39,893 nt of DNA from a virus. The stretch lies in UHGV virus genome UHGV-0204626; one strand, 5' to 3'. Numbering within the stretch: position 1 is the first letter of the stretch; every line of letters starts with the position of its first letter. Positions 2,684 to 30,271 of the stretch are shown here, piece by piece. Made by a program: the position numbers and the translations under genes. Under the pieces are notes generated by a model. The model worked only from the letters and a program-made list of their open reading frames with translations, was not told the origin of the DNA and made no database searches.

Positions 2684-3427
2684 CTATTTCACCTTAATCT
2701 CAACATTTCGCAGCTTTAGCTCTACTGGCAGGTCTGACTTTCCTGTTAATGCTAATGCGAGATTTTCTGGAGTAATGAGAGCAGTTATTGTTTTCCCCCT
2801 CGCCAGACGAATAATCATTCGTATCTCGCAATCGTCACATGCTCCCGGTCGAACAATTGATATTTGTCCATTCATCTCACTCTCCTTTGATGCGAAGCCT
2901 GTTGCAATGCTGCTTATGATGCTGTCAGTGCATGGTGTAGAAAGCTGGGCATCTCCAGCAATTTTCATGACCTCAACATCTGCATATCGAATACCGAGGT
3001 GTATCAGACCGGCTATGCCTGACTTAAGCCGAGCATTTTCCATAAACAGATCCTTTGCCCGCTGTTTTTCTGCCTCAAGCTCAACGCGCAGCTTCCCTAC
3101 CGTTAGCGCAATATCCTCGTTCTCCTGGTCACGGCGTTTGATGTATTGCTGTTTTCTTTCCAGCTCATCCAGCAGCGCCAAGACGGTAGCCGGATTGGCT
3201 GCGGCGATGAATTCAGCATTGGCCTGCTGTTCCATTTGGAAATCTTCATAGAAACGGCTTTCTGGATGCGCTCCTTCAATTCTGCAAATGGGAATATATC
3301 CAGCAACTTCACGATGAATTAGCGCATCATCACCATCAAATCGGCCCTCTCCATATTCGAGCGACCACACACCACACGTTGCTTTTTCTGCCTTAGCACG
3401 CAGTGCCTGATAATCAATCTTGCTCAT
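2684..3427 (-). CDS. Ead/Ea22-like early protein
   Basis: 247-aa ORF; N-terminus MSKIDYQALRAKAEKAT...ANAEFIAAANPATVLALLDELE followed by a coiled-coil stretch, typical of Ead/Ea22-family lambdoid early proteins. Confidence 0.65.
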   Translation of the reverse strand: MSKIDYQALRAKAEKATCGVWSLEYGEGRFDGDDALIHREVAGYIPICRIEGAHPESRFYEDFQMEQQANAEFIAAANPATVLALLDELERKQQYIKRRDQENEDIALTVGKLRVELEAEKQRAKDLFMENARLKSGIAGLIHLGIRYADVEVMKIAGDAQLSTPCTDSIISSIATGFASKESEMNGQISIVRPGACDDCEIRMIIRLARGKTITALITPENLALALTGKSDLPVELKLRNVEIKVK

Positions 3428-3428
3428 G

Positions 3429-3749
3429 TCACATCACCCTGAATCCGTTGCATTTACGTAAAAAATCGCAGATATAGCCCTTCATTTTTTCATGCCAATC
3501 TCGATCATTCCCATTGCACCAACCATCAGGTGGAGTCCAGTTTTCTATCAGAGCAGCCATTTTCTTTGCTTTCGCCGGAGTAGCTGTTGCGGTATCGCAG
3601 TAATGACGAGTGTCAACCAACGCATCCATACCATCGATATCAAGTACGCAAAACCATGTGTGATTCGGAATTCCTACAGGTGGTATTTGTTGCCCACGTC
3701 GACGTTTATCAATAAGATATACACTCACTGCTTGCCTCCTTTGCGCCAC
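3429..3749 (-). CDS. Hypothetical early protein
   Basis: 106-aa ORF in the leftward early operon, tightly packed with its neighbours. Start is uncertain because it overlaps the upstream ORF. Confidence 0.45.
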
Positions 3750-3925
3750 ATCGCATTCAGATATTTGTTTTGATTTACTGACGGAAAAGAATTTCTCTTA
3801 AGCAATTCCTCTCTCGATGGCATTGGCTTTACGCGTTGGCGAATAATCATTTCTGCCGGAAGAATGCCGGGATTGTATGCAAGTCCTCTCATTGTAAATT
3901 CCTCAGTCATTACTGATAGCGCCAT
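3725..3925 (-). CDS. Hypothetical early protein
   Basis: 66-aa ORF in the operon, overlapping neighbours at both ends; context only. Confidence 0.3.
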
Positions 3926-4199
3926 AGCGTGAGCGGTAATTACGCAGGCGCGGGTCGATATATTCAGGGAAGTGGGTATATGTGGATTTGCGGAATGGTC
4001 GGATTGATGTTTCGTTTATTCGGTCTTTTTCCTGTTTTTCTGCGAGTTGTATATCGCGTCGGTACTTCCGTTCTTCTTTTGTTTCTGGTGGCAGAGCAAG
4101 AAACGCGTCGAGATTATTCTTGATATTTTCCAGCACCTCAGATATGGAATTGCCGGAACAGCGGCGCGGGTCGTCCGCACCATATAGAGGCGCTGGCAT
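3903..4199 (-). CDS. Hypothetical early protein
   Basis: 98-aa ORF in the leftward operon, charged and lysine/arginine-rich. Confidence 0.45.
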
Positions 4200-4215: not shown

Positions 4216-4764
4216 TTATTTAGCTAACTTTTTCCAGATCGCTGAAACGTATTTGGCTTGGTGGATGGCATCATCAAGCGCGTTGTGGCGAGTTCCTTTG
4301 AATGGCATATCTCGCTTAGGATCGAATCCTATTACCTTCCCAAGTTCGACGATTGTTCTTACGTCGCGGTCATTCCACCACTGCCACGGAACTGGCTGCC
4401 CTGTCAGCGAATAACTGTTGCGGAGAATAACGCAGTCAAATGATGCTCCATTCCCCCAAACCTGAACGAGTTTGTGGTTGGCGTTCTTTATGATGAATTC
4501 AGATAACCATGAAAGAGCCGTTGAAAGCTCCTGAGTGTTGCTGGTTAGCGATTTTCTGGCTTCTTCACTCTGTTCCAGCCACCATAAAATCGTTGAAGCG
4601 TCAGGACGCGCCCGATATCGCATTGATGACTCAAGCGAGATATTTACCGAGAACTCTTCTCCTGTTTCTCCGGTATTCGGGTCAAAGAATACCGCCCCAA
4701 TAGAAATAACTGGCGCGTATGGCCCGTTGCCCATTGTTTCAAGGTCAACCATCAAGTGATTCAT
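4216..4764 (-). CDS. 3'-5' exonuclease (DnaQ-like / DEDD family)
   Basis: 182-aa ORF; N-terminal MVDLETMG motif (Exo I-like acidic DxE) and C-terminal H...D motif (TRHNALDDAIHQA) typical of DEDDh exonucleases found in prophage recombination modules. Confidence 0.75.
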   Translation of the reverse strand: MNHLMVDLETMGNGPYAPVISIGAVFFDPNTGETGEEFSVNISLESSMRYRARPDASTILWWLEQSEEARKSLTSNTQELSTALSWLSEFIIKNANHKLVQVWGNGASFDCVILRNSYSLTGQPVPWQWWNDRDVRTIVELGKVIGFDPKRDMPFKGTRHNALDDAIHQAKYVSAIWKKLAK

Positions 4765-4772
4765 GTAAGTCC

Positions 4773-5279
4773 TTAAATTGCGTGAATAGCGTGACGAGGG
4801 AAGGGGAGAGTTACTGGTGCAAAGGGTATATCGTCGTCAAAATCCATCGGAGGTTCGTTGTGTTGTGCTGGTGATGATTGCTGCTGTGGCTTCTGCGATT
4901 GCCTGCTGGCTGCTTGTTGTTTGCTGTCGCCAATTCCGCCAAGCATTTGCATCACGCCATTAATTCCGACATGAACCTCGGTTGTGTAACGGTCTTGCCC
5001 TGACTGGTCTTTCCACTTTCTGGTTCTCAGCATTCCCTCGAAATAAATCTGATCACCTTTTTTCACATACTGCCCCACGACCTCAGCCAGTTTCCCGGAT
5101 ACAGCAACACGATGCCATTCAGTCAATTCCTTTTGCTCGCCAGTATTTTTATCTCGCCATTGTTCTGACGTGGCTATTGTCAGGTTAGCGAACGCTGTTC
5201 CTGATGGTGAGTATCGAACTTCCGGGTCTTGTCCTACCCGACCAAGGATAATCACCTTATTTACGCCTCTGCTTGCCAT
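4773..5279 (-). CDS. ssb: Single-stranded DNA-binding protein
   Basis: 168-aa ORF; OB-fold SSB signature ([18 protein letters not shown]...TEWHRV...) with a Gln/Pro-rich linker and acidic C-terminal tail ending DDDIPF. Confidence 0.92.
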
Positions 5280-5987
5280 TTATGCCGCCTGTTTTAGCTC
5301 GTTAACTCTGATGTTCATTACCTGAACGCATTTAGCCTGCGCCTCCTCGTTGCCAGCCATTAATTGCCAGTCACGATGATAACGCTCGATGAGTTTTTTC
5401 TTGTCAGTTTCTGTTGACGCATAATCGCTGAAGTCTTTCAGGATTTGTTCGCAGTCAACCGATGGAGATTTCTGGTTGGTATTTTCTGGTGATGGTTTGT
5501 TATCTGATGCTGGGATTGCCCATCCCGGCAGCGATGGAGGGAGCCAGTAAAATCCTGTTCCATCCTTGAGTTTTGCCCTGTGCCATCCCTGCTTTTTATC
5601 GAGAGATGTTTGTGCAAAACCTTCCTCAAGGTTATACAGATACCGACCGATTCCCCACTGAACGGCAGCGCGCTTCATTGCACCGGAACGACCACCTTTG
5701 ACGGCTTCTACCTGCGTGTTTTCAGCAGCATCCCATTTGGTTACCCATTCGGAATCAATCTTTATTGATATGCCGCATTCAACGCCGCCGTTGTTGGGAA
5801 TATCGCGGTATTCATTGCGCCATCCTGCTTTGCCGCAAACATCGTCCAGGCGTTTCATGATTGCCCGGTTCGTGACATAAGCCAGCACCATAGCCCACAC
5901 TTTGCCATCGCGTGTTTTACCGCTTTGCTGTATTCGCCATTCGATATCTTCAGGGCTGAATGGCTCATCGAATTTATTCAAATCCAT
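5280..5987 (-). CDS. ssDNA-annealing recombinase with an Erf-like C-terminal domain
   Basis: 235-aa ORF directly upstream of ssb in the recombination module. The C-terminal ~55 aa (CEQILKDFSDYASTETDKKKLIERYHRDWQLMAGNEEAQAKCVQVMNIRVNELKQAA) match my recollection of the P22 Erf C-terminus; the N-terminal domain looks like a different annealing-protein family. Confidence 0.75.
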   Translation of the reverse strand: MDLNKFDEPFSPEDIEWRIQQSGKTRDGKVWAMVLAYVTNRAIMKRLDDVCGKAGWRNEYRDIPNNGGVECGISIKIDSEWVTKWDAAENTQVEAVKGGRSGAMKRAAVQWGIGRYLYNLEEGFAQTSLDKKQGWHRAKLKDGTGFYWLPPSLPGWAIPASDNKPSPENTNQKSPSVDCEQILKDFSDYASTETDKKKLIERYHRDWQLMAGNEEAQAKCVQVMNIRVNELKQAA

Positions 5988-6241: not shown

Positions 6242-6394
6242 TCATTTCCTGCGATACCATGGAAGGTTGATAGCTGATTTCATCTCTTTATTTGCTTCAA
6301 GCCACATTTTGGAATCACCAATAAATCTGGCTATTACTGCTTTGTTTTGTGCCGCACGAAGCATCTGGTGATTGATGGCTATTTCATTGCGCAT
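6242..6394 (-). CDS. kil: Kil-like host-killing / cell-division inhibitor protein
   Basis: Manually found 50-aa ORF; the segment AAQNKAVIARFIGDSKMWLEA resembles the lambda Kil core (…FTIATFIGDEKMFREA…), and it sits immediately downstream of cIII as in lambda. Confidence 0.5.
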   Translation of the reverse strand: MRNEIAINHQMLRAAQNKAVIARFIGDSKMWLEANKEMKSAINLPWYRRK

Positions 6395-6510
6395 AATAAG
6401 ACCTCAACTCTTTTCCATCCGTCACGTAATTTACGGGTGATTCGTTCAAGTAAAGATTCATTTAGTTGGAAGGCACCCATGCGAGCGCCTCCCGCGATTG
6501 CGTAAATCAT
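6379..6510 (-). CDS. cIII: cIII-like protease inhibitor (FtsH inhibitor)
   Basis: Manually found 43-aa ORF (MIYAIAGGARMGAFQLNESLLERITRKLRDGWKRVEVLLCAMK) carrying the conserved cIII core ESLLERITRKLRDGWKR; ribosome-binding site AAGGAA upstream. Confidence 0.75.
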   Translation of the reverse strand: MIYAIAGGARMGAFQLNESLLERITRKLRDGWKRVEVLLCAMK

Positions 6511-6534: not shown

Positions 6535-7500
6535 TTAGTAGGTTATTTTTGTTGCGAATACTTCGCCTTTTACGATGGCTGTTATGATATTTTTAGCAAC
6601 ATCTTCTGATGCGACAACCTTGATAAGGTCAGCAAGTATTTTGTTATTTACTTCTTTCCGGTGAGCTTTATCCTTTGCTCTACGCTCTTCTTCGTCCTTG
6701 ATTCTTTTTTCTTCTGCTATTCTGGCTTGCTCTTTTGCTTCAGCCTCGCGCAGGATTCGTTCTGCCTCCTCCTGTGCTTTACGGCGTTCTGCTTCAATTG
6801 CCGCATGCTTTTCTCTTTCAGCTCGTTCTGCCTCTTTTGCTTCGCGCTGTGCTCGTTGCTCGGCTTCAATGCGTTCACGCTCTGCACGTTCCGCTGCGGC
6901 CTTAGCTTCTGCTTCTCGCCTTGCTGCTGCTTCAATTTCGGCTTTTGCCTTTGCTTCGGCTTCAGCTCTGGCTTTCTCTTCAGCTTCTCTTTTTAAGCGT
7001 TCTTCATGCTCTCGCTTTTCCTGCTCAGCTTTGAGTCTTGCCTCTTCTCTTTGGCGGTCAAATTCTCGATCCATCAAAATCGCTATTTCATGGTCAGACT
7101 CAATTTGCTTTGCGAGAGCTTCGGCTGCTGCCTTAGCTTCTTCTTCGGCTTTAATCCGCGCCTGTTCCTCTTCATAATCAGTAAGAGGCTGGCGTGCCTT
7201 GGCTTTCAGTTCATCAAGGCGATCGCGCACTGTCTTGCGGTTGTTATCAATTAGCTTTGGAATTTCCTTCAGTTCAGCAACAAGGTCTTTGCCAAGACCA
7301 TCGAGATATGTTTTCGTCTGCGCAACTTTATACGCCAGAGAAGCGATCTCCTTTCTGCCCTTTGCCGTTGTGATATCAGGCACAAAGGACATAACTTCAC
7401 GTTCAACCTTTTGAAGGATTTCTTCAATCTGGTCGGCAGACTGAAATACAGTCATTGCATTTGCTTTTTCAATAACAACTAAATCTGTTACTTCACTCAT
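6535..7500 (-). CDS. ER/K-rich coiled-coil protein of unknown function
   Basis: Long ORF (6535-7554 in the track); the likely start is the Met at 7500, preceded by GGAGGA. A structured N-terminal ~130 aa is followed by ~150 aa of near-pure E/A/K/R repeats (EAKAKAEIEAAARREAEAKAAAERAERERIEAEQRAQREAKEAERAEREK...) and a short C-terminal domain. Confidence 0.7.
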   Translation of the reverse strand: MSEVTDLVVIEKANAMTVFQSADQIEEILQKVEREVMSFVPDITTAKGRKEIASLAYKVAQTKTYLDGLGKDLVAELKEIPKLIDNNRKTVRDRLDELKAKARQPLTDYEEEQARIKAEEEAKAAAEALAKQIESDHEIAILMDREFDRQREEARLKAEQEKREHEERLKREAEEKARAEAEAKAKAEIEAAARREAEAKAAAERAERERIEAEQRAQREAKEAERAEREKHAAIEAERRKAQEEAERILREAEAKEQARIAEEKRIKDEEERRAKDKAHRKEVNNKILADLIKVVASEDVAKNIITAIVKGEVFATKITY

Positions 7501-7643
7501 ATATCCTCCGTCAAAAAAATTGCCCTCACACTGGAGGGCAAAGAAGATTTCCAATAATCAGAACAAGTCGGCTCCTGTTTAGTTACGAGCGACATTGCTC
7601 CGTGTATTCACTCGTTGGAATGAATACACAGTGCTTACTCGTA

Positions 7644-8114
7644 CTAATAAAATACCCAATTTTCTGTTTCTTGGTTGTGCCCAAAGTTATATTCAATATC
7701 TGGTGTTGATGTATCAATATTCTTCATCCCATCAACAAGAGTTGATACAACAGCCAAATCTTGTTTGATTCTCATCAAATGGTATTTCTTCCGGCGCAAT
7801 AAACTTTCAATGGCAAGTTTCTTCGTCGGGAATGCAAAAGATCTTTCTGCATTTTTTGCTACTTTCTTAATTGCATATCTATTTCTCCTTTGTTTCCATT
7901 CCTGTAACCACTGATTTGGTGCTGGTTTAAAATTAACAATCCAATGCGCAGGAACCAACCATGCATAATGCTCTGTCTGATGAAAAGCTATATATTGAAG
8001 TGCGAATATTTTGATTCCATCTTCTTCAACTGTCGCTTGGAATCTCCAGAAAACAGGCATTCCATCATGTTCAGTTTCTGATTCAGGAAAAGGTACGCTC
8101 CATGATTTTGTCAT
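7644..8114 (-). CDS. Hypothetical protein (156 aa), accessory gene in the ral/sieB position
   Basis: ORF immediately downstream of the N-like gene in the leftward operon, with ribosome-binding site GAGGTGA. The local DNA is visibly AT-rich compared with its neighbours. I do not recognise the protein. Confidence 0.7.
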   Translation of the reverse strand: MTKSWSVPFPESETEHDGMPVFWRFQATVEEDGIKIFALQYIAFHQTEHYAWLVPAHWIVNFKPAPNQWLQEWKQRRNRYAIKKVAKNAERSFAFPTKKLAIESLLRRKKYHLMRIKQDLAVVSTLVDGMKNIDTSTPDIEYNFGHNQETENWVFY

Positions 8115-8122
8115 ATCTCACC

Positions 8123-8422
8123 TCAAATAAGTGGTTTGCTGCCTAATTTCATTTTCTGGCGACCAACACAAGTCACACCCATTTCACTGCGTGGCTTGCG
8201 GTAGTAAATACGGTTCTGTTTACGCTCGACTTCTTCTGCCTTCTTGCAGCGAAGGCTTCCGAGTGATGCTGCTTTATCTGCTCTGACGCAACCAGAGAGC
8301 TTTAGCGCAATTTTTCGCGCCAGTCGCTGTTCTTGCATCGCCTGTTCACGTTGAGCCTGTCTGCGTGCTCTGCGGCGATTTCTGGTGTTATCGTCAGCCA
8401 GATATGTAATGACTACTGTCAT
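8123..8422 (-). CDS. N: N-like transcription antitermination protein
   Basis: Arginine-rich motif near the N-terminus (DDNTRNRRRARRQAQREQ) like the lambda N RNA-binding motif. Start placed at the internal Met (MTVVITYLADD) preceded by GGAGGT; it is the first gene downstream of nutL. Confidence 0.7.
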   Translation of the reverse strand: MTVVITYLADDNTRNRRRARRQAQREQAMQEQRLARKIALKLSGCVRADKAASLGSLRCKKAEEVERKQNRIYYRKPRSEMGVTCVGRQKMKLGSKPLI

Positions 8423-8462
8423 GTTGACCTCCGGGTAGGTGCACATCCTTGTGTGTCGATGA

Positions 8463-8582
8463 TTATTTGTTTTTGCGTTGCCACATCCAGTCATCTACTT
8501 CAGACCAGATAGTGAAACCGAAGCCGATGGCGAATGTGGTAACTAAACCACCGAGAATTGGGTTGGTCATGATGTCTAACAT
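8463..8582 (-). CDS. Hypothetical small hydrophobic peptide (39 aa)
   Basis: Manually found ORF (MLDIMTNPILGGLVTTFAIGFGFTIWSEVDDWMWQRKNK) with ribosome-binding site GAGGA 7 nt upstream; predicted single transmembrane segment; lies between nutL and N. Confidence 0.3.
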   Translation of the reverse strand: MLDIMTNPILGGLVTTFAIGFGFTIWSEVDDWMWQRKNK

Positions 8583-8752
8583 TTTCTGTTCCTCAGATGA
8601 TTAGCTTTGGTGGTGTGGTAGGTGGGAGACCCATTTCGACCCGCTTCGTCCGACTTCAATTCGGCAATAGTCCCGCAGGCCTCGCCGCTTTACGTGCGAC
8701 ATATTCCCGTCCATGAACCCTTCACCACACCCCAAAGCCAACTACTCTTTGG

Positions 8753-8796
8753 TTCCCGCATTTCGGCGGGACAATCCCATCAATGTTAAAGAGCCT
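8753..8796 (-). promoter_or_regulatory. nutL (boxA plus boxB hairpin)
   Basis: On the minus strand: boxA-like GCTCTTTAACA, then 13 nt, then the hairpin CCCGC-cgaaat-GCGGG. The same boxA and an identical boxB occur at nutR on the plus strand. Confidence 0.6.
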
Positions 8797-8834
8797 GCCA
8801 ATCTGTTCCGTTTGGCTTCCAGCGTCCTGCTGAT

Positions 8835-8905
8835 GGCTTAAATTTAAGATCTCTTTAATTAATGGTCAAGGGTATTTTTGAAGAAAACTTAAATTTTCTT
8901 TCGTA
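8835..8905 (-). promoter_or_regulatory. Probable OL/pL operator-promoter region
   Basis: Contains near-palindromic ATTTAAGA...CTTTAAT sites resembling those between c2 and cro; it lies upstream of nutL and N. Exact -35/-10 not resolved. Confidence 0.4.
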
Positions 8906-8959: not shown

Positions 8960-9610
8960 TTATGGAAGGTTTGCTAGTTTTGCATCGACAACTACGCCGA
9001 TGATTTTGCAGTTTCCGTTGATCTCGATCATCGGATATTGTGGGTTAAGTGGTTTTAGAAACTTCCTGCCTGCATCAATAACTAACTTCTTGAAAGTTGC
9101 CTCGTTTTCTCCTTCGAGCTTTGCAACTACCAGTTTCCCGTTACGCGGCTCTACTTCAGGATCGACGAGTATTATCATTCCTTCAGGGATACTGAGACCG
9201 GCCGGAGCCGTCATTGAGTCTCCCTTCACGTCCAACCAAAACGAATCTTCTGAACAGTCTACGGTTGTATCGTACCAGTTATCTATTGCACGCTTATGAT
9301 ATGGTTCTACAGCTTCCATCCAGCATCCTGCGCTCACCCAGCTAATCAGAGGGTATGACCCTCTTGGATCATGCCTACTGTGATAGGCAATGTTTGAAAG
9401 ACTTTCCTCTCCTTTCATCAGATAGTCAGGGGAACACTTCAACGCATTAGCCAGGGCGAGAAGATTCTCTCCATTTGGCTCTGTCTCAGAGCGTTCCCAC
9501 TGAGATATGGCAACATTAGACACGCCGACCATCTTTCCAAGTGCGGACTGCCTGATCTTGAGTTCTTTTCTCCGAGCGCGAATGCGCTCTCCCATCAATT
9601 GAGTTTTCAT
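8960..9610 (-). CDS. c2: c2 (CI-type) repressor, LexA/S24-family
   Basis: 216-aa ORF that matches my memory of the P22 c2 repressor almost residue for residue: N-terminal HTH (IRQSALGKMVGVSNVAISQWER) and C-terminal self-cleavage domain (...GDSMTAPAGLSIPEGMIILVDPE...KLANLP). Confidence 0.95.
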   Translation of the reverse strand: MKTQLMGERIRARRKELKIRQSALGKMVGVSNVAISQWERSETEPNGENLLALANALKCSPDYLMKGEESLSNIAYHSRHDPRGSYPLISWVSAGCWMEAVEPYHKRAIDNWYDTTVDCSEDSFWLDVKGDSMTAPAGLSIPEGMIILVDPEVEPRNGKLVVAKLEGENEATFKKLVIDAGRKFLKPLNPQYPMIEINGNCKIIGVVVDAKLANLP

Positions 9611-19991: not shown

Positions 19992-20432
19992 ATGGCGCGC
20001 CCAACAAAGTATCAAGAGGCGTATGCCGAACAGGCACGCAAACTGTGCTTGCTGGGCTACACCGATGCAGAGCTTGCTGATTTCTTCGAAGTCAGTGAGT
20101 CAACTATTAACAAGTGGAAGCTTGATTATCCTGAGTTTTCGGAGTCCATAAAAAAGGGTAAGGCCGTCGCTGATGCAGAAGTTAGTGATCGTCTTTATCA
20201 ACGCGCTATGGGCTTCGTGGCTCCAGACATCGATATTCGTGTTATTGAAAACAGAATTGTCGAAACTCCGCTTGAGAAGTATTACCCGCCTGATACAACC
20301 GCCGCCATCTTCTGGCTTAAGAACCGACAGAAGGATAAATGGCGCGATAAGGTTGATCACGAGCTAACAGGCAAAGACGGCGGCGCAATCCAGATTGAAA
20401 CATCACCGATGAGCACTCTATTCGGAAAATGA
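19992..20432 (+). CDS. Terminase small subunit
   Basis: 146-aa ORF; the C-terminal LTGKDGGAIQIETSPMSTLFGK matches my recollection of the Sf6-type small terminase tail; coupled to the large subunit gene. Confidence 0.8.
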   Translation: MARPTKYQEAYAEQARKLCLLGYTDAELADFFEVSESTINKWKLDYPEFSESIKKGKAVADAEVSDRLYQRAMGFVAPDIDIRVIENRIVETPLEKYYPPDTTAAIFWLKNRQKDKWRDKVDHELTGKDGGAIQIETSPMSTLFGK

Positions 20433-21844
20433 CCTCGATTAATCCTATCTTTGAACCGTTCATTGAGGCGCATCGCTATAAAGTCGCCAAAGGCGGTCGA
20501 GGTAGCGGTAAGTCATGGGCAATCGCGAGGCTGCTTGTTGAAGCGGCGCGTCGGCAGCCGGTGCGTATTCTCTGCGCTCGTGAACTGCAAAACAGTATCA
20601 GCGATTCGGTAATCCGGTTGCTTGAAGACACCATAGAGCGGGAAGGGTATTCGGCTGAGTTTGAAATTCAGCGTTCAATGATTCGTCATCTCGGAACGAA
20701 TGCTGAGTTCATGTTCTACGGCATCAAAAACAACCCGACGAAGATTAAATCGCTCGAAGGCATTGATATCTGCTGGGTGGAGGAAGCGGAAGCGGTAACG
20801 AAGGAATCATGGGATATCCTGATACCAACCATCCGCAAGCCATTTTCCGAAATATGGGTGAGCTTCAACCCGAAAAACATCCTCGACGATACCTATCAGC
20901 GATTCGTAGTAAACCCTCCCGATGATATTTGTCTGCTGACGGTGAACTACACCGACAACCCGCACTTTCCTGAAGTTCTCTGTCTGGAGATGGAAGAGTG
21001 CAAACGCAGAAATCCGACACTGTATCGTCACATCTGGCTTGGTGAGCCGGTAAGCGCAAGTGATATGGCAATCATCAAACGTGAATGGCTTGAAGCTGCT
21101 ACCGATGCGCACAAGAAACTCGGATGGAAAGCGAAAGGTGCGGTTGTCTCTGCGCACGACCCATCAGATACAGGGCCGGATGCCAAAGGTTATGCATCGC
21201 GCCACGGTTCGGTAGTTAAGCGCATTGCCGAAGGTCTGCTGATGGACATCAACGAGGGTGCTGACTGGGCTACTTCGCTGGCGATTGAAGACGGCGCTGA
21301 CCACTACCTGTGGGATGGTGATGGTGTTGGTGCCGGGCTACGCAGGCAGACAACGGAAGCGTTCTCCGGCAAGAAAATCACCGCCACGATGTTCAAGGGC
21401 AGCGAATCGCCATTCGATGAAGATGCGCCATATCAGGCCGGAGCATGGGCTGATGAAGTCGTACAGGGCGACAATGTTCGCACTATTGGCGATGTATTCC
21501 GCAATAAGCGAGCGCAATTCTATTACGCGCTGGCTGACAGGCTGTATCTGACATATCGGGCGGTTGTCTACGGTGAGTATGCAGACCCAGACGACATGCT
21601 GAGTTTCGACAAAGAAGCGATAGGCGAGAAGATGCTGGAGAAGCTGTTTGCAGAACTGACGCAGATTCAGCGCAAATTCAATAATAACGGGAAGCTGGAG
21701 CTAATGACTAAGGTCGAAATGAAGCAGAAGCTCGGTATTCCATCTCCTAACCTGGCTGATGCGTTGATGATGTGTATGCATTGCCCGGAGTCGGCTGCGC
21801 AACCCGACTATTCCAGTTACTCAATTCCTTGTGGTGTAGGTTGA
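20429..21844 (+). CDS. Terminase large subunit
   Basis: 471-aa ORF with N-terminal Walker A (KGGRGSGKS) and a C-terminal nuclease-like domain, followed by the portal gene. Confidence 0.9.
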   Translation: MTSINPIFEPFIEAHRYKVAKGGRGSGKSWAIARLLVEAARRQPVRILCARELQNSISDSVIRLLEDTIEREGYSAEFEIQRSMIRHLGTNAEFMFYGIKNNPTKIKSLEGIDICWVEEAEAVTKESWDILIPTIRKPFSEIWVSFNPKNILDDTYQRFVVNPPDDICLLTVNYTDNPHFPEVLCLEMEECKRRNPTLYRHIWLGEPVSASDMAIIKREWLEAATDAHKKLGWKAKGAVVSAHDPSDTGPDAKGYASRHGSVVKRIAEGLLMDINEGADWATSLAIEDGADHYLWDGDGVGAGLRRQTTEAFSGKKITATMFKGSESPFDEDAPYQAGAWADEVVQGDNVRTIGDVFRNKRAQFYYALADRLYLTYRAVVYGEYADPDDMLSFDKEAIGEKMLEKLFAELTQIQRKFNNNGKLELMTKVEMKQKLGIPSPNLADALMMCMHCPESAAQPDYSSYSIPCGVG

Positions 21845-21845
21845 T

Positions 21846-24044
21846 ATGGCAGAAAAAAAGATGACTGACTGGCATCGCAAGGTGCTGTGCAACTTTGATA
21901 ATGCCTGGTCAGCAACGCAGGATATGCGTGAGCAGATTATAGAAGCTCAACGTTTCGTCCGGGTGTCCGGCGCACAGTGGGAAGGCAGCACAAACGCTGG
22001 TTACTCATTTGATGAAGGCAGGTTTGAGCATTACCCGCGCTTTGAACTGAATAAGATTGCCCGTGAATGTGATCGCATCATTGGCGAGTATCGACAGAAT
22101 CGCATCAGCGTTAAATTCAGGCCGAAGGATGACAAGGCATCGGAAGCGTTAGCCGAAAAGATGAACGGCAAATTCCGCGCTGACTATCAGGAAACATCCG
22201 GTGGCGAAGCGTGTGATAACGCATTTGATGATGCTGTAACGGGCGGATTCGGTTGTTTCCGCATGTGTGCCGATTACGAAGATGAAATGGATCCGAGTAA
22301 CGAGCAGCGACGCATCAGCCTTCTTCCTGTTTACGACCCAGCGACATGCGTCTTCTTCGATCATGACAGCAAGCAATATGACCGTTCTGATGCTATGTGG
22401 GCTATGGAAATGTTCTCCATGACGCCTAAAGCGTTCGAGGCTGAATACCCTGATTCCATCGCGGCAAGCCTTTCTCGTTATGACACTGGCACTCAATATG
22501 ATTGGTCAACGCCTGATGCCATCTATGTTGGACGCTACTACGAAGTTCGCATAGAGAAGGTGAAGCTCACAGCATGGCGTAACCCTGTTAGCGGAGAAAC
22601 GGCAATCTATGATGAAGAGCAAATCAAAGATATTGTTGACGAGCTAACCGATGGTGCATTCGAGCTGATCGGTGAGAGGACAGTGAAGAAACGCAGAGTT
22701 TATTGCGGTCTTCTGTCTGGCGCTGAATGGCTGGAAGAACCGAAGCGTATTCCGGGTGAACATATTCCTCTCATCCCGGTATATGGGCGTCGCTCATTTG
22801 TTGATAATCAGGAGCGAATCGAAGGCCACGCAGCAAAAGCGATGGATGCACAGCGTCTTGAGAACCTGATGGTTTCCATGATTGCAGATAACGCTACTCA
22901 GGCTGGCGGTGATGGCATTCCTATCGTGGATGTTGATTTCATTCCCGGCCCATTAATGAATCACTGGGCAGAGAGGAATAAGAAAAGACCTGCAGTTCTT
23001 CCCATGACCAGCAAGAAGGACAAAAACGGAACGGTCATTTCAGAGGCTCAGGTTGCTGGCTGGACACCTCCGACACAAATGCCTCCTGCTCTTGCCGGGC
23101 TATTGCAGTACACCGGAACGGCTATTCAGCAAATTACAGGTGCGTCGCAGCTTGAGAACATGCCGAGCAACGTCGCTACCGATACCGTTGATAGCATCTT
23201 TAACCGGATGGACACGCAGTCCTATATCTACATGGACAACATGGCTAAATCCATGCGCCGTGCTGGCGTCGTGTGGCTTTCTATGGCTCGTGAAGTCTAT
23301 GGCAGTGATACGCCGATGCGTATCGTTAATGAGGACGGCAGCGATGACGTGGCGCTGATGACTGGTGAAGTGGTTGACCGTCAGACAGGGCAGGTTATCG
23401 CGCTTAATGACCTTTCGCAGGGTAACTATGAAGTGACTGTCGATGTTGGCCAGTCGTTCGCTACTCGCCGTGATGCAACGGTTAAGTCGTTACTTTCCAT
23501 GCTGGCACTTATCCCACCAGGAACTCCGAAGCACGACCTTGTATCGTCGATGATTCTCGACAATATGGACGGCGAAGGGATGGACGACCTGAAAGAATAC
23601 AACCGCAATCACTTGCTTCTGTCTGGCGTTATCAAGCCGAGAACGCCTGAAGAGCAGCAGATGGTTGAACAGGCGAAACAACAACAGGCCAGTCAGCCAG
23701 ATCCGGCTATGGTTGCAGCGCAAGGTCAGCTTCTTGCTGGTCAGGCTGAATTGCAGAAAGCGCAGAACGAACAGGCAGCCATTCAGGTTAAAGCATTCCA
23801 GGCACAGACTGATGCTCAGGTTGCAGCGGCAAATGTTGTGAAAATACTCGCATCTGCCGATAGCCAGCAGAAATCTGATATCCGCGAGGCTCTGAAACTG
23901 CTCGGACAGTTCCAGCAACAGCAAGGAGACAATGCCCGTGCTGATGCAGAGCTTGTCCTGAAAAGTCAGGCACAGGGCCATGCGCAGCGCATGGACATCA
24001 GCAGCATCCTGCAAAAATCAACCCGGCAACAACCACAGCAGTAA
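21846..24044 (+). CDS. Portal protein (P22 gp1-like)
   Basis: 732-aa ORF in the P22 size range, with a long Gln/Ala-rich helical C-terminal tail as in the P22 portal barrel; positioned after terminase. Confidence 0.9.
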   Translation: MAEKKMTDWHRKVLCNFDNAWSATQDMREQIIEAQRFVRVSGAQWEGSTNAGYSFDEGRFEHYPRFELNKIARECDRIIGEYRQNRISVKFRPKDDKASEALAEKMNGKFRADYQETSGGEACDNAFDDAVTGGFGCFRMCADYEDEMDPSNEQRRISLLPVYDPATCVFFDHDSKQYDRSDAMWAMEMFSMTPKAFEAEYPDSIAASLSRYDTGTQYDWSTPDAIYVGRYYEVRIEKVKLTAWRNPVSGETAIYDEEQIKDIVDELTDGAFELIGERTVKKRRVYCGLLSGAEWLEEPKRIPGEHIPLIPVYGRRSFVDNQERIEGHAAKAMDAQRLENLMVSMIADNATQAGGDGIPIVDVDFIPGPLMNHWAERNKKRPAVLPMTSKKDKNGTVISEAQVAGWTPPTQMPPALAGLLQYTGTAIQQITGASQLENMPSNVATDTVDSIFNRMDTQSYIYMDNMAKSMRRAGVVWLSMAREVYGSDTPMRIVNEDGSDDVALMTGEVVDRQTGQVIALNDLSQGNYEVTVDVGQSFATRRDATVKSLLSMLALIPPGTPKHDLVSSMILDNMDGEGMDDLKEYNRNHLLLSGVIKPRTPEEQQMVEQAKQQQASQPDPAMVAAQGQLLAGQAELQKAQNEQAAIQVKAFQAQTDAQVAAANVVKILASADSQQKSDIREALKLLGQFQQQQGDNARADAELVLKSQAQGHAQRMDISSILQKSTRQQPQQ

Positions 24045-24134
24045 TTAACCCATAACGTGCAATGGCTGTCTTTATGAGGCCTGGCACGCTATTGCCTTCC
24101 GATGGGCTGAACATCGAGTAAACAGGGGTAACAA

Positions 24135-25031
24135 ATGGACCAGATGGCAGAAAACACACCAGAAGTTGAAATCGAAACCGACGCGTCAGAGCAGATTCCT
24201 GATGATGTCGAACTGGCTGAAGAAGTCGAAACAGAAGATGGCAGTGAGTCCTCTGGCAATGATGCAGAGGAAGCTACTGAAACTGATGACGACGAATCAG
24301 AACAGGAATTCTACTTTGGTGACGAAAAGCTGGATTCGCCAACCAGCGAAGATAGCGCAGAGCATGGACTGGTAAAACACCTGCGCAAGACGATTAAAGA
24401 GAAAGATCGCGAGCTGAAAGAGCTGATGCGTCAGTCTCAGAAACCCGTCGAGCAGCAGCCGGTAATCACTCAACCACCGCGAATGCCAAAACTGGATGAT
24501 GAGGACATCGGTTTCGATGAAGAAATCTATCAGCAACGCATGGCTAAGTGGGCAGAGGATAACGGAAAGTACCAGCAACAGGAGATGGCTCGCAAGCAGA
24601 AGGAGCAGGAGCTTCAGGCTGCTTATCAAGAGCGATTATCCAAATATCAGCAACGTGTTAAGGCTCTCAAGGTTCCTGGCTATCAGGAAGCAGAACAGGC
24701 CGTACTCGAGGAAATCCCCATCGAGACACAAAACGCGATCCTGTTTGAGTCAGAGAAGCCGGAAATCGTTGTTCTGGCGCTTGGTCGCAACGCTGAACTG
24801 CGCAAGCAACTGGCAGAAGCTACCAACCCCGTAGCAATTGGTCGTCTGCTGGAACGTATCGAATCGAAGGCCAGAATCATGCCAAAAGCAAAAACCACGG
24901 CAGCCACAACCCCGACAGTTAAGGGGAGCAACGGCGCAGTAATCAATAACCTCGACAAACTTCTCGAAAAAGCACGCGACACCGGTGATTACACCGAATA
25001 CCGGGCGGCGAAGAACAAAGCTAAAAAATAA
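24135..25031 (+). CDS. Scaffolding protein (P22 gp8-like)
   Basis: 298-aa ORF, highly charged with an acidic N-terminus, between portal and coat. Confidence 0.85.
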   Translation: MDQMAENTPEVEIETDASEQIPDDVELAEEVETEDGSESSGNDAEEATETDDDESEQEFYFGDEKLDSPTSEDSAEHGLVKHLRKTIKEKDRELKELMRQSQKPVEQQPVITQPPRMPKLDDEDIGFDEEIYQQRMAKWAEDNGKYQQQEMARKQKEQELQAAYQERLSKYQQRVKALKVPGYQEAEQAVLEEIPIETQNAILFESEKPEIVVLALGRNAELRKQLAEATNPVAIGRLLERIESKARIMPKAKTTAATTPTVKGSNGAVINNLDKLLEKARDTGDYTEYRAAKNKAKK

Positions 25032-25051
25032 TCCATCGGAGCTAAATACCT

Positions 25052-26311
25052 ATGTCTAACCAGTTAACCAAAGACCTCGAAATCCTCTTTGAGAGCGTCA
25101 TTGATAGTTTTGAGGCGTCCAATGTCGTTTCCCGCGAGTGCAGCAAGTTCCGACCGGGCGACATTGAAATGCAGCGCGCTGGCGACGTTGTTTATCGCCC
25201 TCAGGGCTACCACCTGAAAACCGTGAGCGGACTTGATCTGACTTCGGCCACTGCAAACTCACTCGTTCAGCGTCAGGTGCCTGCTCGCTTCCGCGAGCCA
25301 GAGAACGTCATCTACGAACTGGACGCAAAAGAAATGCGCGATCCGTGGCACAAAGAGCAGGCTGGCAAGGCGGCGGGTCGCCAGTTGGCGGCGTGGGTTG
25401 ATAACATGATCGTCGATGAGGTGGTCGCTCGCTCCACCAACGTGGTCACCATTAAATCGGCGTCCACCGGTAGCACTCTCGGCGAAGAACTCTGGAACGC
25501 ATCGGCTGACGTTGATGCAATGATGCTGTCCATTGGTGTGCCTCAGGGTGGTCAGCGCAAGGCGTTCTACAACCCGTTCAACTACAAAGACCTGGCTAAG
25601 GAGCTTGGCTCTCGCGCATATGCGGTCGGTGCAACTCTGACAGCCTATGAGAAAGCTCAGATTCCACCTGTGGCATCCTTCGACAGTTTCCGCGTTGATT
25701 ATGCTGGCGCAATGAAGGCTGGTTCAGCTACCGCTGTAACTCTCGGCGGCGCAGTAAAACACAAAGTTACCGCGATGGATTCCAACGGCGCGCCTACCGA
25801 TAACCGCCAGGGTGACATCACCGTATCCACTGCTGGCGTACTGGCTGTCGGCGATGCATTCACTATCGCAGGCGTTAACAGTGTCCACATGATCAAGAAG
25901 GTGGATACAGGTAAGCCGCAGGTATTCCGCGTCCTGGCAGTAAATGGCACTACCGTTACCATCAGCCCGAAAATTCTGCCACCAGACAACGCGGATAAGG
26001 CGTCTATTCCTTACCAGAACGTTACCGCCAATCCGGTGGCAAACGCGGCGATCACCATCCTCAACAAGAAGGCTGCGGCTTCCAACATCTTCTTCGCTGA
26101 GGGTTCTGTTGAGCTGATGTATGGCAAGTTGGCATTCCCTACCGGCCAGGGTCCGCAGGTTATGACCGCAAGGACCGAGCAGGGTGCGACCATCATCATG
26201 GCTTACCAGTTCGACGCTAAATCTGGCAAAACGTGGACTCGCTTCACCACGCTGGCTGGCGCAAGCGTACTGGTCCCGGAATTCACCGGCCTGGTACTGG
26301 CTAACCAGTAA
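25052..26311 (+). CDS. Major capsid (coat) protein
   Basis: 419-aa ORF in the P22/Sf6 coat size range at the conserved position, followed by a strong terminator. Confidence 0.9.
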   Translation: MSNQLTKDLEILFESVIDSFEASNVVSRECSKFRPGDIEMQRAGDVVYRPQGYHLKTVSGLDLTSATANSLVQRQVPARFREPENVIYELDAKEMRDPWHKEQAGKAAGRQLAAWVDNMIVDEVVARSTNVVTIKSASTGSTLGEELWNASADVDAMMLSIGVPQGGQRKAFYNPFNYKDLAKELGSRAYAVGATLTAYEKAQIPPVASFDSFRVDYAGAMKAGSATAVTLGGAVKHKVTAMDSNGAPTDNRQGDITVSTAGVLAVGDAFTIAGVNSVHMIKKVDTGKPQVFRVLAVNGTTVTISPKILPPDNADKASIPYQNVTANPVANAAITILNKKAAASNIFFAEGSVELMYGKLAFPTGQGPQVMTARTEQGATIIMAYQFDAKSGKTWTRFTTLAGASVLVPEFTGLVLANQ

Positions 26312-26316
26312 TCCAA

Positions 26317-26341
26317 GGGGCTTCGGCCCCTCTTTTTTTTT
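26317..26341 (+). terminator. Rho-independent terminator after the coat gene
   Basis: GGGGC-ttcg-GCCCC hairpin followed by an 11-nt T-run. Confidence 0.75.
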
Positions 26342-26350
26342 GGAGATCGA

Positions 26351-26540
26351 AATGTCTCAAATCATGCTTTATAAGCCGGGAACGATGATCACCTGCGGCC
26401 CCCACTCGCTGGATTACATCATCGTTGATGACGAAGAAGTTAAATCTCACCTGAAAAAAGGCTGGGTAAAAACTCCTGAAGAAACCGCAACGAAGCAAAA
26501 AGTGGCTAAGGCGGAAGAAGATGGCGAAAACGAAGGGTGA
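26351..26540 (+). CDS. Hypothetical small protein
   Basis: 63-aa internal ORF with GGAG ribosome-binding site (MSQIMLYKPGTMITCGPHSLDYIIVDDEEV...), between coat and gp4. Confidence 0.45.
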
Positions 26541-26982
26541 TCTCGTTCTAAAGGCTTTACGAAAAGCCGGGCTGTATTCCAATGCCACGTTGACAGATGC
26601 TGACCCTCAGGCAATTGAAGATGCCATTAATGACCTCGAAGACATGATGGCAGCATGGCAGGCTAAAGGTATCGAGCTTGGATATCAGTTTGCTGATACA
26701 GAAAACGGCATCATGCCGTTACCTGACGATGATTCAGGTATCCCTGCATGGGCAAATGATGGCGTCGCTTTGAAACTCGCTGTGCAAGTGTGCATGGATA
26801 ACGTCATTCAGCCGTCAGACGCTCTCCTTACCGCTGCTGACAGTGCATATCAAACAATCTGTATCGCTTTAACCAAAATACCACCACTTGAGCGACGAAA
26901 TGATATGCCTCGCGGGGCGGGGTTAAAAAGCGCGTTTACGTGGAATCGGTTTTACATCGAGAAAGATGATCCGAGTACGTGA
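26521..26982 (+). CDS. Head-to-tail connector / tail accessory factor (P22 gp4-like)
   Basis: 153-aa ORF at the conserved position after coat in the P22 gene order. Confidence 0.75.
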   Translation: MAKTKGDLVLKALRKAGLYSNATLTDADPQAIEDAINDLEDMMAAWQAKGIELGYQFADTENGIMPLPDDDSGIPAWANDGVALKLAVQVCMDNVIQPSDALLTAADSAYQTICIALTKIPPLERRNDMPRGAGLKSAFTWNRFYIEKDDPST

Positions 26983-26991
26983 GGTGAATAA

Positions 26992-28410
26992 ATGCCGATT
27001 CAGCAACTTCCGCTTATGAAAGGTGTCGGCAAAGACTTTAGAAACGCCGACTATATCGACTATCTGCCAATGAATATGTTGGCTACACCCAAAGAAATCC
27101 TGAACAGCAGCGGATATCTTCGCTCATTCCCTGGCATTGCCAAACGCTCTGATGTGAACGGTGTATCTCGCGGCGTCGAGTACAACATGGCGCAGAATGC
27201 TGTTTATCGCGTGTGTGGTGGCAAGCTCTACAAAGGCGAAAGCGAAGTAGGTGACGTCGCCGGAAGTGGTCGCGTATCAATGGCGCATGGTCGAACATCT
27301 CAGGCTGTAGGCGTTAATGGTCAACTGGTCGAGTATCGCTATGATGGCACGGTTAAAACCGTCTCAAACTGGCCTACAGACAGTGGATTCACGCAGTATG
27401 AGTTAGGCTCAGTCCGCGACATTACGCGCTTGCGTGGGCGTTATGCGTGGTCAAAAGACGGCACTGATTCATGGTTTATCACTGACCTTGAAGACGAATC
27501 TCATCCTGACCGCTACAGCGCACAATATCGCGCAGAATCGCAGCCTGACGGCATCATCGGCATCGGAACATGGCGAGACTTCATCGTATGCTTTGGTTCA
27601 TCAACGATTGAATATTTCTCCCTGACTGGCGCAACCACCGTTGGTGCCGCGTTGTATGTCGCACAGCCATCACTGATGGTGCAGAAAGGAATTGCCGGAA
27701 CCTACTGCAAAACGCCGTTTGCTGATTCGTATGCGTTCATCAGCAATCCGGCAACGGGTGCGCCGTCTGTGTACATCATCGGTTCCGGTCAGGTGTCACC
27801 AATCGCCAGCGCGAGCATTGAGAAAATCCTCCGCTCCTACACTGCTGATGAACTGGCTGATGGCGTGATGGAATCGTTGCGCTTTGATGCTCATGAGTTG
27901 CTGATTATCCACCTTCCGCGCCACGTCCTAGTATATGACGCATCTTCAAGCGCTAATGGTCCGCAATGGTGTGTGCTGAAAACAGGCTTGTATGACGATG
28001 TGTACCGCGCTATCGACTTCATTTACGAAGGCAATCAGATAACGTGCGGAGATAAGCTGGAATCGGTTATCGGCAAATTGCAGTTCGATATCAGCAGCCA
28101 GTATGGGCTACAGCAAGAACACCTGTTGTTTACACCACTCTTCAAAGCTGAGAACGCCAGATGTTTTGATCTGGAAGTTGAATCATCGACTGGTGTCGCT
28201 CAGTACGCTGACCGCCTGTTCCTCTCTGCAACCACTGACGGCATCAATTACGGACGTGAGCAGATGATTGAGCAGAATGAACCGTTCGTTTACGACAAAC
28301 GCGTTTTGTGGAAGCGAGTAGGGCGCATCAGGAAAAATGTCGGCTTCAAATTGCGCGTTATCACGAAGTCACCTGTCACTCTGTCTGGCGCTCAGATAAG
28401 GATCGAGTAA
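26992..28410 (+). CDS. Tail hub protein (P22 gp10-like)
   Basis: 472-aa ORF, the same length as P22 gp10, in the conserved order. Confidence 0.8.
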
Positions 28411-29111
28411 TGGCTGATTCGAATCTCAACACCCCTGTTATTGTGCAGGCGACGCGGCTCGATACATCAATCCTTCCACGCAATATATTCAGCCAGTCTT
28501 ACCTGCTGTATGTCATTAATCAGGGGGCTGATGTCGGCGCAATTGCCGGGAAGGCAAATCAGGCTGGTCAGGGCGCTTACGATGCTCAGGTGAAAAACGA
28601 TGAACAGGATGTCGAACTGGCTGATCACGACGCAAGAATCACCGCAAACACAAAAGCGATAAATCTCCTTGAGGTCAGGTTAACAACCGCCGAAGGGAAG
28701 ATAGTCGTACTGCGTAGCGATGTTGATTACTTGCTGGATGAGGTTATCGATATTCAGGGGCATCTGGTCACTGTTGACCAAAGACTGGATGACGTAGAAA
28801 ACGATGTCTCTGGCATTAAGAGTGATTACGTATCGAAAACCGTAACAGAATCGCAGTCTCTTGCGTCACCGCTGGATGTAAAAACATCATATTCAGTTGA
28901 TGGAATTCAGGTCGTTGGAGCAAGGCAGACCGGATGGACAGCGGCCACAGGCACACCACTTCTTGGCTCATTCAACGCTAACCAGTCATACACGGTCGGC
29001 ACTACGTACACACAATCCGAAGTCGCAGCTATCGCTACAGGTTTGGAGCAGGCGCGGCAGCGTATTCTGGCGCTTGAAACAGCACTTAGATTACATGGGC
29101 TGATTGACTGA
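28410..29111 (+). CDS. Tail needle / plug protein (P22 gp26-like)
   Basis: 233-aa product from the internal Met ([27 protein letters not shown]...), coupled to the gp10 stop; heptad-repeat coiled-coil core. Confidence 0.85.
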
Positions 29112-29566
29112 TGATTACATTCAAACCAACGCGAAACATCGACCTGATAGAAGCAGTCGGAAATCACCCTGACATTATTGCCGGGAGCAACAACGGTGAT
29201 GGATACGACTACAAGCCTGAATGCCGTTACTTTGAGGTTAACGTGCACGGTCAGTTCGGCGGAATTGTTTACTATCAGGAGATTCAGCCGCTGACCTTTG
29301 ATTGCCACGCCATGTACCTGCCAGAGATTCGCGGATTCAGCAAGGAAATAGGGCTGGCGTTCTGGCGATACATTCTGACTAACACCACTGTTCAGTGTGT
29401 CACATCGTTCGCTGCGCGCAAATTCCGCCACGGGCAGATGTACTGCGCAATGATTGGCCTTAATCGTGTAGGAACCATCAAGAAATACTTCAAAGGCGTG
29501 GATGACGTGACATTTTACAGCGCCACACGCGAAGAACTAATCGACTTCCTGAATCACGGGAGATAG
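29111..29566 (+). CDS. Head assembly / ejection-associated protein (P22 gp14-like)
   Basis: 151-aa ORF at the gp14 position (26-14-7-20-16 order). Confidence 0.6.
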   Translation: MITFKPTRNIDLIEAVGNHPDIIAGSNNGDGYDYKPECRYFEVNVHGQFGGIVYYQEIQPLTFDCHAMYLPEIRGFSKEIGLAFWRYILTNTTVQCVTSFAARKFRHGQMYCAMIGLNRVGTIKKYFKGVDDVTFYSATREELIDFLNHGR

Positions 29567-29568
29567 CC

Positions 29569-30261: not shown

Positions 30262-30271
30262 GGGGTAATCA

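Follow-up and report, generated by a model that had tools for sequence, protein, structure and literature searches.

Single alpha helices (SAHs) rich in glutamate, arginine and lysine (ER/K) have been studied in detail in eukaryotic motor proteins and serve as linkers in protein engineering; we know of few from bacteria or phages, and of no SAH-based spacer described so far in bacterial or phage DNA metabolism. Here we examined a gene predicted to encode such a helix (6535..7500, minus strand) in UHGV-0204626, a virus genome of 39,893 nucleotides (nt; positions 1-39893, referred to below as the window) that resembles the complete genome of a P22/Sf6-like temperate phage. The counterpart of this gene in phage Sf6 is gene 33, whose protein is reportedly similar, according to Casjens et al., to Orf53 of the Pseudomonas phage D3. 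The gene sits upstream of recombination (Rec) genes, a setting on which published surveys bear. The catalogue of 325 lambdoid Rec modules distinguishes annealing proteins, nucleases, single-stranded DNA-binding proteins (SSBs) and anti-RecBCD proteins; it also discusses further early-left proteins that may act in DNA transactions (PMC12315714). In Firmicutes, erf-ssb and sak4-ssb modules are preceded by genes for Mu Gam, DUF2483, DUF1351 or gp157, for which the authors infer analogous functions from position (PMC8093625).

The coding sequence runs from an ATG at 7500-7498 to a stop codon at 6537-6535 on the minus strand and specifies a protein of 321 amino acids (aa). The gene is 98% identical to Sf6 gene 33 at the DNA level and, as in Sf6, is flanked by a tL2-type terminator and cIII; its product matches phrog_1376 (E=2e-105) with residues 1-321 aligned to profile positions 1-362. 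Distant family members also match this profile, which is labelled function unknown. Judged by sequence, the window gene is an ortholog of Sf6 gene 33 (PHROG 1376); as an ortholog its product is unremarkable, the gene having long been sequenced though not characterised.

An earlier note on this DNA, made from the letters alone, had pointed to about 150 residues rich in Glu, Ala, Lys and Arg between an N-terminal and a short C-terminal domain, and composition bore this out. The main ER/K(A) tract covers aa 151-285 (6646..7050, minus strand, as are all segments of the protein given here); 84% of its 135 residues are Glu, Lys, Arg or Ala (EKRA; E 30%, A 25%, R 18%, K 12%), and its net charge is -2. 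It is preceded by an E/A-rich helical segment (aa 107-130, 7111..7182), in which oppositely charged residues spaced i/i+4 are enriched (z=3.1), and by a non-repetitive interruption (aa 131-150, KQIESDHEIAILMDREFDRQ, 7051..7110). Residues 1-106 and 286-321 are of ordinary composition.

The charges in the main tract are arranged as expected for a helix stabilised along its own surface. We counted 50 opposite-charge i/i+4 pairs, compared with 24.3±3.7 in shuffled sequences (z=6.9), and five same-charge i/i+4 pairs, compared with 23.8 (z=-5), with no enrichment of opposite-charge i/i+3 pairs (z=-0.1). The Fourier spectrum of signed charge peaked at a period of eight residues with a power of 4.8, versus 0.6 for shuffles; none of 1000 shuffles exceeded this value at period 8, and 2.4% did so when the maximum over all periods was taken. 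A hydrophobic seam was not detected: occupancy of the heptad a and d positions was 0.17 in the best register, versus 0.18 in shuffles (z=-0.5; with Ala counted, z=1.3), bulky hydrophobic residues account for 7% of tract positions, and the global 3.5-residue periodicity power was at background level. Tropomyosin, run through the same heptad script as a positive control, gave z=7.7 and, with Ala counted, 13.2. The tract combines the E/K/R content (A and Q also counted; at least about 70-80% over tens of residues), near-neutral charge, i/i+4 pairs, charge period of 6-9 residues and lack of a heptad seam by which SAH sequences are recognised.

Structure prediction was consistent with these statistics. 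AlphaFold2, run on the monomer only with a 28-sequence alignment, returned one continuous helix from aa 46 to 295 with a mean predicted local distance difference test score (pLDDT) of 80 (about 90 over aa 81-200, 75-86 over aa 201-270 and 62-68 over aa 271-300). At 1.5 Å per residue, the main tract would measure ~20 nm, aa 107-285 ~27 nm and the whole predicted helix ~37 nm. As far as sequence statistics and structure prediction go, the reading of the tract as an SAH is supported and the coiled-coil alternative is disfavoured; the earlier note had allowed either form of spacer, and only the single helix gained from the analysis. From the model we infer that the tract would behave as a monomeric SAH in solution.

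We also considered a dimeric or oligomeric scaffold, in which the 250-residue helix would pair, in parallel or in an antiparallel 'alacoil'-like manner, to form a bivalent rod bridging two DNAs or complexes as CtIP or SbcC do. The heptad-like hydrophobic stripe along aa 46-130 of the N-domain helix (z=4.2), the Ala content of the tract and the name 'coiled-coil domain-containing protein' that PGAP sometimes assigns would all suit such a rod. A coiled coil within aa 151-285 was nevertheless rejected on the shuffle-level a/d occupancy, the heptad pattern being found only in aa 46-130. The small share of bulky hydrophobics, the background 3.5-residue power and the natural length differences, which are mostly not multiples of seven (see below), likewise argue against pairing along the tract, and we regard the scaffold as quite unlikely.

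The likeness to eukaryotic ER/K SAH or charged SAH (CSAH) domains (those of myosin VI, myosin X, caldesmon, MAP7 and DBHS proteins, the last as in PMC4647456) extends to the E/R/K content, the i/i+4 pattern, the ~8-residue charge period, the missing seam and the predicted unbroken helix, and in both cases the spacer is placed between two folded modules. The phage tract differs in that it is richer in Ala, occurs in a phage or prophage protein and is long (family median 152 residues, here up to ~180). The resemblance is one of convergent composition, not homology.

Both ends of the protein carry conserved features. The N-terminal domain (aa 1-106, 7183..7500) has an amphipathic helix and a basic core and is marked by the family signature VPDxTTxKGRxxIASxAxKVAxxKTxLDxxGKxL...IDxxRKxxRxxLDxxxxxxRxPLTxWE; all invariant columns of the family alignment (D42, T45, K47, G48, R49, A56, K63, G70, L73, R88, R103, P105, L106 and E110) are present in the window protein. 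The core of this domain (aa 40-106) has a pI of 9.7, compared with 5.5 for the whole protein, and together with the heptad-like stripe this suggests that the N-terminal end probably packs against something, be it itself, a second chain or a partner. The C-terminal knob (aa 286-321, 6538..6645) belongs to the family motif HRKxINNxxxxxLxxxGxxExxAKxxxxAIxKGxIPxxxIx(Y/F)-COOH, which starts at H280 and with which the window C-terminus, ...KGEVFATKITY, agrees. An AlphaFold2 model of the knob built with 68 diverse sequences (pLDDT 95) shows the long helix finishing, followed by a second, short helix and an extended tail, and a structure search with it found no informative neighbour.

The earlier note had proposed a homology search with the N-terminal domain alone. 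We ran a profile of this domain against 1.84 billion representative proteins clustered at 50% identity; 5,746 clusters matched at E<=1e-3, most of them of 300-390 aa, and 1,919 still did so at E<=1e-30. Among the best 150, 124 representatives were full-length; 108 of these had at least 100 residues in EKRA-rich windows, and 106 ended in the motif ...G(L/M)(T/S)EExAKxxxxxIAxGxIPxxxIx(Y/F). A scan of one genome per species gave 80 loci in Gamma-, Beta-, Alpha- and Deltaproteobacteria, Planctomycetes and Acidobacteria. In the 69 complete species-level homologs the tract has a median length of 152 aa (range 112-219), and the i/i+4 opposite-charge enrichment is kept in 64 of them (median z=5.0). 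The tract thus diverges in sequence but keeps its charge pattern and approximate length, as would be expected of a selected SAH spacer, and both the charged helix and a knob closing with Tyr/Phe are retained across Proteobacteria, Planctomycetes and Acidobacteria.

In larger family members the N-domain is followed by one to four helical 'W(Q/E)EF' modules before the charged tract begins, and the interruption at aa 131-150 of the window protein may be a remnant of such modules. In three distant homologs (P0299, P0205 and P0211) the module reads 'D/R-x-W-(Q/E)-E-(F/Y)' and has no Pfam match. We also noted two chimeric proteins, for both of which a frameshift is possible: P0186 (299 aa) joins the N-domain and part of the tract to a different, Ala/Gly-rich C-terminus (precomputed PF26808), and in P0236 (427 aa) the tract and knob are replaced by a region with a Walker-A-like GFTGSGKS.

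Searches for a known relative were negative. The window protein matched no Pfam family at E<=1, and scans of the protein and 57 relatives with Pfam, NCBIfam and PADLOC gave no meaningful family. PDB sequence searches, with the single sequence and with a 40-sequence profile, returned nothing below E=0.2, and Foldseek against the PDB gave only matches at E>2. A further homolog search returned only entries named 'hypothetical' or 'TolA', mostly partial proteins, and a literature search (Sf6 gp33, prophage 'TolA', SAH plus prophage, mEp234) found no paper on this protein.

A low-complexity gene of this kind could be the product of a frameshift or misassembly, or a genuine TolA paralog, and several database records lend themselves to this reading. 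Many homologs in the databases are truncated at contig ends, the CUS-3 record CP000711 splits the gene, with two hypothetical proteins under the match, PHROGs 17211 and 21365 are two halves of the gene, BFVD holds a 116-aa fragment (A5VWA2), and the NCBI name for the protein is TolA. We nonetheless found the gene to be real and conserved. By megablast, the gene region was found in 327 phage records; DNA identity is 95-99% for 325, among which are Sf6 (gene 33), CUS-3, HK544, mEp234, mEp213, Sf101, IME10 and many Shiga toxin (Stx1/Stx2) phages. The family protein also occurs in HK633. It is also present in 530 of 5,426 complete E. coli genomes (~10%), in 496 of which at least 80% of the gene is covered and the open reading frame (ORF) is intact. 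These counts show that the earlier note, which had called such a protein unusual for a lambdoid early gene, overstated its rarity.

The first IMG/VR locus scan returned near-identical relatives only, which are informative for allele lengths and not for gene context; a 322-aa protein is encoded in 76 of 80 of these loci, and the window allele is one codon shorter than this modal form. Across 71 distinct 322-aa alleles, a crude count gave ratios of nonsynonymous to synonymous polymorphism (pN/pS) of 0.25 for the N-domain and 0.34 for the ER/K tract, which indicates purifying selection on the gene. Rarer alleles of 245, 275, 290, 296, 300, 309 and 333 aa are 96-99% identical to the window protein over aligned residues. 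When tract lengths were compared among relatives, as the earlier note had also suggested, all the length differences proved to be in-frame indels inside the tract (+11, -13, -22, -26, -32, -47 and -77 relative to 322 aa). The 245-aa allele, without 77 residues, lacks the entire 131-150 interruption. Discrete length alleles recur: P0166 and ~16 more clusters are of 245 aa (E. coli and Salmonella), P0071-P0077 of 300 aa and P0069 of 333 aa. A misassembled or frameshifted region had been named as what would overturn the earlier note, as had a clear family with a known role; the ORF is intact and under apparent purifying selection, and no such family was found. Given the intact ORFs, the pN/pS below 0.35 and an architecture kept across phyla, the artefact reading was ruled out, and we give it almost no credence.

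The broken records have explanations of their own. In the split records a 116-aa N-terminal ORF is followed by a 214-aa C-terminal ORF, and the split likely reflects a sequencing error or a frameshift where the low-complexity tract begins; records such as that of CUS-3 are probably the origin of the half-length PHROGs 17211 and 21365. Short-read assemblies often stop within the ER/K-coding DNA, and public protein sets hold many N-terminal fragments; because low-complexity DNA breaks such assemblies, many database entries of the family are fragments.

The name 'cell envelope biogenesis protein TolA' has a compositional basis, as domain II of TolA is also a long Ala/Lys/Glu-rich helical low-complexity region. 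The likeness ends there. With respect to the domain I anchor, the N-terminus is polar, the maximum 19-aa Kyte-Doolittle hydropathy is 1.27, in a window within the C-terminal knob, and no signal peptide or membrane segment was found. As for domain III, no Pfam family was matched at E<=1, and NCBIfam offers no TolA model. With neither the membrane anchor nor the TolA C-terminal domain, TolA identity was ruled out; by these sequence features the name is a compositional mis-annotation, and the protein is a predicted cytoplasmic phage early protein.

We next turned to gene context in the diverse loci, clustering neighbour ORFs and confirming cluster representatives with Pfam; greedy ORF calling is unreliable in high-GC loci, and the counts are lower bounds. 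The recurrent same-strand downstream neighbours were YqaJ exonuclease (16 loci), SSB (15), ERF (14), DUF3799 PDDEXK nuclease (12), RecT (~10) and AAA_24/Sak4 (four), with DnaQ-like exonucleases as further ones. A Rec gene (any of these or Rad52) lies within six genes downstream on the same strand in 43 of the 64 loci that have at least 4 kb downstream, compared with 10 of the 64 that have at least 4 kb upstream for the six genes on that side. At 19 loci a Rec gene follows directly, and 17 of these have a gap of -20 to +11 nt; a cI-like repressor is commonly found two to seven genes upstream. In Proteobacteria and beyond, the Sf6 gp33 family fills a slot upstream of annealing proteins. As the partner annealing protein can come from any of four families, any functional link would involve the process or a host factor and not one particular recombinase.

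This slot, upstream of the genes for the single-strand annealing protein (SSAP), exonuclease and SSB, is the one held by lambda Gam, Mu Gam, Sipho_Gp157, DUF1351 and DUF2483, whatever the SSAP family, and the protein could be a proteobacterial counterpart of lambda Gam, Mu Gam, gp157 or DUF1351 that inhibits RecBCD or protects ends, shielding linear phage DNA from host nucleases. Beyond the shared position and the Firmicutes modules described above (PMC8093625), this proposal could draw on mEp234, which carries the gene, is placed in group D ('other') and not in group C, the anti-RecBCD group, and apparently has no recognised anti-RecBCD gene (PMC12315714). Co-occurrence points the other way. 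Abc2 is found together with the family gene in the window and at two further loci (L095 and L134), and in a Raoultella lignicola prophage (L092) a lambda Gam homolog (8549-8839, 72% identity) stands in the order target gene, gam, recT, exo (YqaJ). The mutual exclusivity expected of a Gam substitute was not seen, so a simple substitute was ruled out, and because the gene co-occurs with Gam or Abc2 the protein is probably not a RecBCD inhibitor.

Sequence comparisons were equally unhelpful to this proposal. Pfam scans gave no match to lambda Gam (PF06064) or Mu Gam (PF07352) save for an isolated E=0.095 in one distant member, and PDB searches were negative. DUF1351 (PF07083), Sipho_Gp157 (PF05565) and DUF2483 had no match at E<=1 in the window protein, 17 homologs and 40 N-domains, all scanned with HMMER only and without profile-profile comparison. 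The Sf6 gp33 family thus has no HMMER-detectable or fold similarity to the other occupants of the slot (PDB Foldseek E>2), and the protein is not strongly acidic in the way of DNA mimics (pI 5.5, tract net charge -2). We consider a Gam-like role improbable.

In the window itself, the earlier note's placement of the gene in the early-left operon was confirmed by gene order, by the Sf6 annotation and by the diverse loci. On the minus strand an S24/helix-turn-helix (HTH) repressor (8960-9610), an N-like gene (8123-8494) and a 156-aa ORF (7644-8114; phrog_1636, function unknown, 2.7e-112, no Pfam or PADLOC family) are followed by a terminator, the ER/K-helix gene and, after a 24-nt gap, cIII (6379..6510; Pfam Lambda_CIII, 4e-15). 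Next come kil (6242..6394; Lambda_Kil, 6e-19), two small ORFs and a Rec module that starts with a Rad52/22-type single-strand annealing protein (5280..5987; Rad52_Rad22, 5e-26) and continues with SSB (4773..5279; SSB, 1.6e-36), a 3'-5' exonuclease of the Rv2179c-like DEDD type (4216..4764; PF16473, 6e-73) and the Abc2 anti-RecBCD protein (3903..4199; Anti-RecBCD_p2, 1e-43). The gene therefore lies between the repressor/N region and the Rec module. Sf6 has other genes (34, ral and 36) in the 7644-8114 slot, which marks it as a mosaic accessory position. Beyond Abc2, the minus strand carries a DUF7739 gene (3429-3749) and an Ead/Ea22-like gene (2684-3427). On the plus strand we noted a 392-aa ORF that is a putative integrase by position alone (10-1188), and long ORFs that are putative terminase-to-tail genes by size and order (20429-33759). 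An 805-aa ORF (36808-39225) is a putative tailspike gene on the same grounds. A 111-aa protein from a 415-kb E. coli contig (P0016) fuses in frame the first 80 residues of the target (...KDLVAELKEI) to the last ~31 of Abc2, implying a prophage deletion that took cIII, kil and the whole Rec module.

A strong intrinsic terminator (7513..7541, minus strand) with a GC-rich 8-bp stem (TTGCCCTC/GAGGGCAA) followed by T7 lies directly upstream of the gene, a few bases before its Shine-Dalgarno sequence (GGAGG, 7505..7509, minus strand, 4 nt 5' of the ATG). Sf6 annotates the equivalent element as 'terminator; homology to phage lambda; tL2A'. A longer ORF with a TTG start (to 7554) was rejected: it would cross the terminator hairpin, and all homologs start with MSEVTDL. 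A sequence scan of the minus strand between the terminator and the upstream ORF found no promoter-like site. The tL2-type terminator and the lack of a promoter-like site therefore mark the gene as a predicted delayed-early, N-dependent gene of the pL operon, implying that its expression would need N antitermination from pL.

The earlier note had also remarked on spurious ORFs generated by repeat DNA. Such ORFs do overlap the gene on both strands (6698-7177, plus, 159 aa; 6661-6996, plus, 111 aa; 6717-6935, minus, 72 aa) and have low-complexity translations; read from the codon list, those on the opposite strand exist because the dominant tract codons (GAA, GCA, GAG and AAA) are not stops when read antisense. 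The description of the DNA as a repeat did not hold up: Tandem Repeats Finder gave only a degenerate GCTTCT hexamer (61% matches) and a separate repeat search only a weak 24-nt register, so a true tandem repeat was ruled out and the DNA is merely of low complexity.

The immediate neighbours, cIII and kil, bring up a host-takeover or 'moron-like' accessory function unrelated to DNA metabolism, acting on the envelope, division, proteolysis or defence or as a decoy, with the helix as a reach or steric element. In lambdoid phages the gene lies between N and cIII, in a mosaic region rich in host-modulating genes where lambda has ea10, ral and sieB, and it is absent from many of these phages, including lambda, and so dispensable for the basic life cycle. 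The protein, however, gave no PADLOC hit and has no signal peptide, membrane segment or promoter of its own, the Rec-gene synteny holds in phyla without cIII and kil, and purifying selection and cross-phylum conservation are atypical of fast-turnover morons. We view such a function as rather unlikely, if a serious competitor.

The most likely role, which we put forward tentatively and with less than even confidence, is that of an accessory protein that serves the early-left recombination/replication module as a rigid spacer. The protein would consist of an amphipathic, basic, all-helical N-terminal head of ~110-125 aa that carries the family signature, an ER/K(A) single alpha helix of ~20-27 nm (main tract 135 aa; ~180 aa if counted over 107-285) and a ~40-aa C-terminal knob ending in an invariant aromatic residue. 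The helix would be stabilised by i/i+4 Glu-Arg/Lys salt bridges instead of a hydrophobic seam. We infer that the two conserved ends may bind two different partners, either DNA or proteins of the Rec module or of host DNA metabolism, which the charged helix would hold at a set distance, acting as a spacer or tether in recombination. The gene would be expressed only after N antitermination, behind the tL2-type terminator.

Several observations weigh against a spacer role in the Rec module. The argument draws on context and sequence, with no homolog of known function, and neighbourhood is a weak guide to function in the early operons of phages, where gene order is conserved for modular reasons. 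In the window the annealing-protein gene is not adjacent, with cIII, kil and the two small ORFs in between, and about a third of the diverse loci have no recognisable Rec gene downstream, in part a limit of ORF calling at high GC. The Sf6 gp33 family is neither mentioned nor listed as a Rec gene in the survey of 325 lambdoid modules (PMC12315714). The protein might possibly dimerise through its amphipathic N-domain or by antiparallel pairing of the Ala-rich tract, the AlphaFold2 model being of a monomer only. Finally, the spacer differs in length by -77 to +11 residues among natural alleles, which speaks against a precise ruler but does not count against a spacer.

At the level of the family, what is new is its large size, the tripartite architecture with a selected ER/K helix, the placement at the head of Rec modules and the systematic mis-annotation. 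Some 10% of complete E. coli genomes, with many Stx-converting prophages among the carriers, have the gene under the wrong name TolA, and a very large family is without a Pfam model or known function. A family that conserves only charge pattern and approximate helix length over huge distances is a natural test of what such helices are for, and the natural 245-333-aa alleles provide a ready-made series of spacer lengths. It is possible, though we hold it as a doubtful proposition, that the family is an unrecognised Rec-module component of thousands of prophage lineages, reaching from Proteobacteria to Planctomycetes and Acidobacteria, in which a true ER/K helix serves as a 17-33 nm rigid spacer joining a DNA- or protein-binding head to a C-terminal docking knob. 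If so, an SAH-spacer family would have been hidden so far by the 'TolA' mis-annotation and by assemblies broken in low-complexity DNA. If the Rec link is functional, the lambdoid catalogue of annealing protein, nuclease, SSB and anti-RecBCD protein would be missing a widespread fifth component, which could matter for recombineering toolkits.

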